Made by a program: the position numbers and the translations under genes
Source: Escherichia coli
GTDB lineage: Bacteria; Pseudomonadota; Gammaproteobacteria; Enterobacterales; Enterobacteriaceae
DNA length: 64,000 nucleotides
Reading direction: 5' to 3' (one strand)
NCBI RefSeq assembly: GCF_003334765.1
Contig: NZ_QOWT01000019.1
Notes under the pieces: generated by a model
Told to the model about the DNA's origin: nothing
What the model saw: the letters and a program-made list of their open reading frames with translations, nothing else
The model's database searches: none
Shown: positions 40,303 to 40,764 of the stretch, in pieces
How positions within the stretch are numbered: the first letter of the stretch is position 1
Layout: each line of letters begins with the position of its first letter

Positions 40303-40764
40303 GTCTGTATTTCCTTATCCAAAGTATGGAGAAGTTAACATTATGTTTCACAACTTCATAGTGTCTGGAAGTATTATTTTTATGACAAAGGAAATACTTT
40401 GCGCAAATATTTTTTGTTTGATTACCAGCGAAACGTTTCTCTTATTTAAATAATTACCCACACAAAATATAGGCTTTTAATTATCAACCTTTATTATAAA
40501 TAAAAGTTATGAAATATATTCTCTTCGTTAACTTATAATTAAGAGAAAAAAACTCACCGCATGGCCATTTAAGCCAGGAATAAATTAGCTTCCCGTTCAT
40601 CATTTTTGTGATCTTGCGCACATCTTTGAGATAACGCACTTTCTTCACCAGTACGTTGCACGCTTTGTCAGCAGAAGATTGCAACAATCTTTCAGAAGGC
40701 CGCGAATCCCCCGTTTTGTCGTGGTAATGTATGCACTTTGTGTTAGACGGGATAGGTTTTTAAG

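Follow-up and report, generated by a model that had tools for sequence, protein, structure and literature searches.

The 462-bp spacer between the divergent genes iraP and ddlA of Escherichia coli is, as the best explanation of the whole, very probably a non-coding control region built from the remains of three ancestral intergenic regions, with the iraP promoters inside it together with an orphaned CRP promoter and an RbsR-like site. The iraP core promoters occupied only about 70 bp of the spacer and the predicted ddlA promoter about 45 bp; a CRP site, a palindrome resembling the RbsR operator and the scars left by two lost genes made up the remainder. The certain part is already known, as this is the iraP (and presumably the ddlA) promoter region of E. 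coli K-12, and not a new kind of system. To this the present analysis adds anatomical detail: a pair of iraP starts behind conserved promoters, a PGAP-annotated gene that is spurious, the scar of a two-gene deletion, the orphaned CRP promoter and the RbsR-operator-like site.

The window, i.e. the whole stretch of 64,000 nucleotides that was analysed, carried iraP on the minus strand (40042-40302), with phoA after it, and ddlA on the plus strand (40765-41859) according to the RefSeq annotation. As the start codon of iraP was at 40302-40300 (minus strand) and the ATG of ddlA at 40765 (plus strand), the spacer extended exactly from 40303 to 40764. It was 100% identical to the corresponding DNA of E. 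coli K-12 MG1655, and 5423 of 5426 complete E. coli genomes carried it, as a single copy each (at least 90% identity). Its GC content was 0.342 (34%) vs. 0.512 for the window, within the lowest 1.2% among all 462-bp windows, and it was far longer than the intergenic gaps in the window (crude median of about 100 bp; GC 0.46). The window held two more divergent spacers that were equally AT-rich (50177-50666 and 55253-55810), and the spacer is thus real and not exceptional. The earlier note had described iraP in reverse and ddlA in forward orientation, diverging across a long AT-rich spacer of about 460 bp, and the start codons, the annotation and the base composition agreed with that description.

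The iraP locus was compared across 80 species. The distance between ddlA and iraP was 450-464 bp only in Escherichia, about 600 bp in one Citrobacter group, and 1.6-2.5 kb in about 70 of the 80 species (Salmonella, most Citrobacter, Enterobacter, Lelliottia, Kosakonia, Cedecea and others). In most Enterobacteriaceae this interval held two genes on the iraP strand, whose ORFs were examined in Salmonella and Enterobacter. The first was an ORF of 227-235 amino acids (orf227) with no NCBIfam match, and the second an mdtG-like MFS transporter of 403 amino acids, which scored 543 bits against the MdtG model, just under the cutoff. Homology of the E. coli spacer to other genera was limited to the formerly intergenic parts: positions 40764-40683 corresponded to the spacer between ddlA and orf227, positions ~40682-40577 to the end of orf227 plus the spacer between orf227 and the MFS gene, and positions ~40535-40303 to the spacer between the MFS gene and iraP. 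The site of the MFS coding-sequence deletion, a junction at 40543-40576, was fast-evolving, with 21% invariant columns in Escherichia, and had no homology to other genera. A tblastn search with the 227-aa and MFS proteins of Salmonella against the E. coli spacer returned noise only (best E 0.26; 859-nt database). Because the segments were homologous to three intergenic regions and no coding remnants were detected, Escherichia has lost both coding sequences and kept the DNA upstream of them. On this comparative evidence, what remained of three intergenic regions was fused by the loss of two genes to give the E. coli spacer.

A relic of the promoter of the first lost gene was recognisable beside ddlA. 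The conserved block TGCCATAATGTT corresponded to the orf227 promoter (alignment A2), and the relic extended -10 of the lost orf227/230 gene (40686-40694, minus strand) read TGaAAGATT in K-12 and TGcCATAAT where the gene was kept. In Klebsiella pneumoniae, KPN_00324 (the orf230 orthologue) had a mapped transcription start site (TSS) 7 nt after TGcCATAAT. A horizontal gain of AT-rich DNA, silenced by H-NS, would fit the low GC content (0.28-0.36 within the spacer vs. 0.51 for the window), but such an origin is very improbable, as each recognisable segment had its orthologue in the intergenic DNA of this locus in other Enterobacteriaceae, and the spacer was single-copy and present in essentially all E. 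coli. Horizontal transfer was rejected because of this orthology at the locus.

No convincing ORF was present in the spacer, as the earlier note had stated. The longest one encoded 67 amino acids from a TTG start (40484-40687, minus strand) and was annotated by PGAP as hypothetical protein WP_001300163.1 in many RefSeq E. coli genomes, but the curated NC_000913.3 record had no entry there. In the spacer alignment the frame was disrupted by a frameshift or stops in 6 of 6 other Escherichia lineages, with a 1-bp indel in a T-run already in a relative of 95% identity and stop codons in the remaining lineages. Substitutions were without an excess at third positions (e.g., 6:4:1 and 19:20:12 at codon positions 1:2:3), and the search against NCBIfam gave no family match. 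The 67-aa ORF is judged to be an annotation artefact and not a gene, and so is the "hypothetical protein" that PGAP has placed at this position in thousands of E. coli records. A 37-aa ORF was also rejected (no family match, not conserved).

The possibility that the spacer codes for the 67-aa protein, another small protein or an sRNA is extremely remote. Apart from the PGAP annotation, it would be favoured by the RNA of 40500-40576, which was more stable than shuffled sequences (z = -3.0). Against it stand, besides the broken frame and the lack of codon-position bias, a covariance-model scan of 39500-41500 with Rfam 15 that gave 0 matches at E ≤ 1, a terminator scan of the spacer that detected no terminator-like site, and Cappable-seq data with no internal TSS on the iraP strand. 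The hairpin at 40515-40546 (z = -3.0) was considered as a terminator and discarded, because its stem was not conserved and no U-run followed it.

iraP is driven by two sigma-70-type promoters, both of which fall within the 105 bp preceding its ATG. For the iraP strand, starts were taken from Cappable-seq of MG1655 cells in M9 plus glucose (U00096.2 coordinates, with the iraP ATG at 400610). Within the spacer there were TSSs at 400543 (score 298), 400561 (score 3) and 400587 (score 168), equivalent to positions 40369, 40351 and 40325 of the window, and the two main ones (40369 and 40325) preceded the ATG by 67 and 23 nt, respectively. An independent TSS set (Kim et al. 2012) likewise had an iraP start at 400587, with a 23-nt leader. 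The distal promoter (40369-40406, minus strand) comprised a -35-like TTGCGC (40406-40401) and a -10 TAAAAA (40382-40377), the latter within the CATAAAAATAnTAC block and ending 8 nt before TSS 40369; both the -35-like block TATTTGCG and the -10 block were conserved across genera in the 18-taxon alignment. The proximal promoter (40325-40340, minus strand) had an extended -10 TGtTAACTT (40340-40332) that ended 7 nt before the TSS at 40325 (A), and its TG, TA and final T were invariant in the 18 taxa, from Escherichia to Leclercia. The 5' UTR with the Shine-Dalgarno sequence GGATAAGGAAAT (40303-40324, minus strand; core AAGGAA at 40316-40311) was near-invariant in the 18 taxa. A further candidate from a generic promoter scan, CAGACA-16-CATAAT, fitted neither mapped iraP TSS and was dropped. 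The earlier note had placed the iraP promoter in this spacer and had named a promoter mapped outside it as the contrary outcome; both TSS maps put the iraP starts inside the spacer, at 40325 and 40369, behind conserved sigma-70-type elements.

Activation of iraP by ppGpp and DksA and its induction by phosphate starvation are reportedly established. ppGpp/DksA-activated promoters typically have an AT-rich discriminator, a feature shared by the distal iraP promoter (TAATACT, 6/7 A/T) and less so by the proximal one (CTCCAT, 3/6 A/T), and we infer that the distal promoter is more likely to be the ppGpp-responsive one. The secondary literature describes iraP as an "extensively characterized" ppGpp-activated promoter with DksA co-activating, and ties IraP to phosphate starvation, in line with the phosphate-starvation response through ppGpp named in the earlier note. 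The E. coli iraP promoter published by Bougdour and Gottesman (2007) and Girard et al. (2018) is at the same locus and in the same DNA, and its expected position coincides with the TSSs at 40325 and 40369 and their conserved -10 regions. On the literature, it is in this region of the spacer that ppGpp and DksA activate iraP in starvation.

On the opposite side of the spacer, the 82 bp adjoining ddlA (40683-40764, plus strand) formed a block conserved in about 50 species loci (blastn), with 86% invariant columns within Escherichia. It would comprise the ddlA 5' UTR and core promoter, and was homologous to the ddlA-orf227 intergenic region elsewhere in Enterobacteriaceae. Transcription of ddlA is predicted to depend on an extended -10 TGgTAATGT (40722-40730, plus strand; predicted TSS ~40736-40738, or ~400950-400952 in U00096.3), whose TG, TA and final T were invariant over 21 taxa (alignment A2). 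The TSS set of Kim et al. (2012) had no entry for ddlA. The presence of a ddlA promoter in the spacer, also put forward in the earlier note, is thus consistent with a conserved extended -10 and stands as a prediction from conservation.

The CRP site TGTGATCTTGCGCACA (40607-40622; TGTGA-N6-GCACA) matched 9 of 10 consensus positions and was present in 6 of 6 other Escherichia lineages. A 2026 Footprint-seq preprint reported ttTGTGAtcttgcGCACAtct (40607-40622) as a novel high-affinity CRP site, "ddlA / iraP", with a Kd of 1.2 nM in vitro. In Salmonella, Citrobacter, Enterobacter and Lelliottia, TGTGA-N6-TCACAAAAATGATGAACGGGAAGATAAAAT preceded the start codon of the MFS gene by about 110 nt (alignment A3), and in the same alignment an ancestral TAAAAT started 27.5 bp from the centre of the CRP site, a class II arrangement. 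The counterpart in E. coli was a -10-like TAATTT (40582-40587, minus strand), just downstream of which the deletion begins. With a predicted TSS at ~40573-40575 (~401113-401115 on the plus strand of U00096.3), directed toward iraP, this hexamer puts the CRP centre at -39.5 to -41.5. Because the CRP site was homologous to the promoter site of the MFS gene, and that gene has been lost, the arrangement is read as an orphaned class II CRP promoter. It has in common with class II CRP promoters (centre near -41.5) the 9/10 site, the nanomolar affinity and the -10 at 27.5 bp, and differs from the usual ones in that its original gene, the mdtG-like MFS gene, is gone and the next gene, iraP, is about 270 nt away. 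The terminator scan and folding revealed no terminator between the orphan promoter and iraP.

Conservation around the CRP site was uneven. The island at 40577-40623 was 89-98% identical to K-12 across Escherichia, vs. 38-67% for its flanks and 66-90% for four-fold degenerate sites of ddlA, and Citrobacter lineages without the MFS gene (with or without orf227) still carried the CRP site. This identity and the retention of the site after loss of the MFS gene indicate continued selection on the orphan promoter. On the alignments, then, the CRP site and the -10 at 40587-40582 make up an orphaned class II promoter of a lost transporter, still under purifying selection and aimed at iraP. CRP-cAMP could then provide a carbon-status input to the spacer, either via an iraP transcript that starts far upstream or via ddlA.

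Action on ddlA deserves separate weighing. That the CRP site serves ddlA, or represses or insulates the divergent promoters, and does not direct a transcript toward iraP, is possible, if on the unlikely side. The ddlA ATG kept a near-constant spacing from the CRP centre (150 bp in Escherichia and 163 bp in Citrobacter sp. NCU1-type), whereas the spacing to the iraP ATG varied between 300 and 441 bp, and this steadier spacing suggests that the site may serve ddlA. In addition, the one data set that covered the position, Cappable-seq of M9 plus glucose cells, in which CRP is inactive, showed no TSS on the iraP strand between U00096.2 398889 and 400543, and so none at the orphan promoter. The CRP centre is, however, at roughly -122 relative to the predicted ddlA TSS, which is not one of the usual class I positions, and inspection of the sequence revealed no plausible plus-strand -10 at class I or class II distances. 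The conserved island also stretched asymmetrically toward iraP and covered the ancestral -10, which ddlA would not need. An orphaned promoter directed at iraP is retained here as the reading of the CRP site.

The palindrome AGAGAAACGTTTCGCT (minus strand; 40427-40442, centre 40434.5) was the most sharply conserved element upstream of iraP in the 18-taxon alignment. Relative to the distal iraP TSS its centre had position -65.5, with 132 nt separating it from the iraP ATG. It resembled rbsO, the operator used for crystallography of which is GTGGGTCAGCGAAACGTTTCGCTGATGGAG, with the same core upstream of rbsD in MG1655. The palindrome matched 15 of 16 positions of the rbsO core and 17 of 20 positions of the 20-mer TCAGCGAAACGTTTCGCTGA, including the central CG; the right half-site GTTTCGCT was a perfect rbsO half and the left half was one base off. 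It was the only match to rbsO with three or fewer mismatches in the 64-kb window. A 4.6-Mb genome should, by our own calculation, contain about 0.05 matches to the 16-bp rbsO core with one mismatch or fewer. In 58 of 80 species, a site with at most three mismatches kept a fixed distance to the iraP ATG (116-133 nt). Within Escherichia the palindrome was 100% invariant, vs. 21% for the adjoining 18 bp. The palindrome is apparently undescribed as a ribose-repressor-like site. A search of the searchable literature for RbsR and iraP together found no connecting paper; a genomic-SELEX study gave five RbsR sites, and the palindrome may or may not be among them.

A LacI-family repressor, most probably RbsR, would bind the palindrome at 40427-40442 and modulate iraP with ribose. 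Assignment to another LacI-family regulator with a AAACGTTT core (Cra, PurR, MalI or GalR/GalS) is unlikely, though LacI-family operators overlap in specificity and the 10-bp core GAAACGTTTC of the palindrome was identical in the Cra consensus and in the proximal operator of fruB (TTCTTGAAACGTTTCAGC). A AAACGTTT motif upstream of gvrA in Serratia was, moreover, not bound by RbsR in EMSA. All six flanking positions differed nevertheless from the 16-mer consensus of Cra (FruR), GCTGAAACGTTTCAGC. The PurR consensus, which we take to be ACGCAAACGTTTGCGT, differed from the palindrome at three positions per half. When compared by eye, operators of Cra, PurR and other LacI-family members fitted worse than rbsO and were rejected; the perfect right half-site and the left half with a single difference favour rbsO, and the phenotypic parallel between rbsR and iraP in Salmonella (see below) fits RbsR specifically.

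A simpler account is a plain two-promoter spacer, in which the core promoters of iraP and ddlA are the sole functional elements, with a CRP site and a palindrome that are inert or due to chance and an AT-rich filler that does nothing. It is in keeping with a simple CRP pattern search, which gave 2 matches in the window vs. 1.75 expected, with the curated K-12 annotation, which is empty here, and with the missing TSS at the orphan promoter in glucose. This account is nonetheless quite improbable. The CRP island and the palindrome were 89-100% identical in Escherichia vs. 32-67% for adjacent DNA and 66-90% for the four-fold sites of ddlA. The position of the palindrome was kept in the 58 of 80 species, CRP bound its site with nanomolar affinity in vitro, and the Citrobacter lineages that retained the CRP site had lost the MFS gene independently. 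The 15/16 match to rbsO was likewise far from the chance expectation calculated above. Two additional motifs in the spacer, ATTGCAAC at 40678-40685 and CGGGGGATTCG at 40713-40703 (minus strand), are presumably weak matches to a CytR-like site and a CsgD-box-like site, respectively.

An RbsR-like operator, with conserved promoters downstream of it, is thus the preferred reading of the palindrome, and its placement differs from that of rbsO. The latter overlaps and represses the rbs promoter, whereas the iraP palindrome, at -65.5, is upstream of the -35, a location more typical of activation, as with Cra. The Salmonella iraP control region contained an orthologous iraP-proximal segment of about 230 bp with the same palindrome and both promoter blocks; Salmonella keeps orf227 and the MFS gene upstream of iraP, is without phoA downstream, and differs from E. 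coli between the palindrome and the upstream AT-rich block. It is in that interval that the PhoP box of Salmonella is presumed to sit, and iraP is reportedly induced there in a PhoP-dependent manner. To our knowledge, the established transcriptional inputs to iraP are so far only ppGpp/DksA, plus PhoP in Salmonella. The level of RpoS, the sigma factor of the general stress response, is set by three anti-adaptors, IraP among them.

In Salmonella, transposon insertions in iraP and in rbsR came from one screen, and deletion of either rbsR or iraP lowered RpoS protein with rpoS transcription unchanged, as reported by Wenner et al. (2024). Those authors favour an indirect post-transcriptional or post-translational route via rbsD mRNA and do not mention iraP in this respect. 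Direct RbsR control of iraP would explain the Salmonella data if RbsR acted positively from the upstream site. In K. pneumoniae a mapped iraP TSS was at the edge of the palindrome, a geometry that predicts repression, of opposite sign to the Salmonella phenotype. Because of this geometry, and because binding is only predicted, direct control of iraP by RbsR from the predicted site is considered possible but short of an even chance. The combined proposal, in which RbsR would tune iraP directly, linking ribose to RpoS stability through IraP, and the orphaned CRP promoter would have been co-opted as a far-upstream iraP promoter dependent on cAMP-CRP, is put forward as tentative.

The spacer is a clean case of deleted genes leaving behind regulatory DNA under continued selection. 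The near-perfect, conserved RbsR-like operator before iraP bears on the unexplained phenocopy between rbsR and iraP in Salmonella. If direct control by RbsR were true, it would provide the missing mechanism for the RbsR-dependent level of RpoS and for the succinate phenotype described in Salmonella in 2024.

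In most Enterobacteriaceae, ddlA and iraP are separated by an ORF of 227-235 aa and an mdtG-like MFS transporter gene (641-1324 and 1493-2704 in L014, and 701-1408 and 1434-2792 in L026, two iraP loci of the 80-species comparison). The 227-235-aa ORF had no NCBIfam match. Both genes were missing in Escherichia, and some Citrobacter lacked one or both of them. In C. amalonaticus S646 (locus L012), orf227 together with the scar of the MFS gene deletion was flanked, one copy per side, by a repeat that is GC-rich and about 95 bp long (1493-1585 and 2733-2830) and may be a small mobile element. 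In Citrobacter sp. NCU1 (L009, 2597-2701), a 34-aa ORF (MSVAGIAALGSTFALFRSTRRGRRRSSLDVQIVL), with GGAG 7 nt upstream, began at the relic -10 of the transporter promoter and is probably spurious.

Within the spacer between iraP and ddlA in the window (40303-40764), the 67-aa "hypothetical protein" WP_001300163.1 (40484-40687, minus strand) was spread by PGAP across RefSeq E. coli genomes; it had no entry in the curated K-12 record, and its reading frame was not conserved. Two other divergent spacers of the window were at least as AT-rich (50177-50666, 490 bp, GC 0.33; 55253-55810, 558 bp, GC 0.29). The inverted repeat TTCTCTT...AAGAGAA (40515-40546, minus strand) folded better than shuffled sequence (z = -3.0), and its stem was not retained in other Escherichia species. 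The iraP leader GGATAAGGAAAT (40303-40324, minus strand) was almost invariant across genera, and its Shine-Dalgarno region included two GGA motifs. The leader could represent a site of the CsrA type, or just the ribosome-binding site.

The yaiB/iraP TSS of K. pneumoniae (NC_009648) has been mapped at 366604, 102 nt upstream of the ATG (Kim 2012, supplement). This position was the last G of GGTAAAACGTTTCGCTG, and the RbsR-like palindrome (40427-40442 in the window) covered -13 to +1 of the corresponding Klebsiella promoter, a promoter that does not seem to be present in E. coli. In E. albertii (locus L008, about 2860-2880), 12 bp were deleted between the palindrome and the -35 element of the distal iraP promoter. 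Over all loci and genera, the palindrome lay either 129-133 or 116-121 nt from the ATG, two distance classes that differed by about one helical turn.
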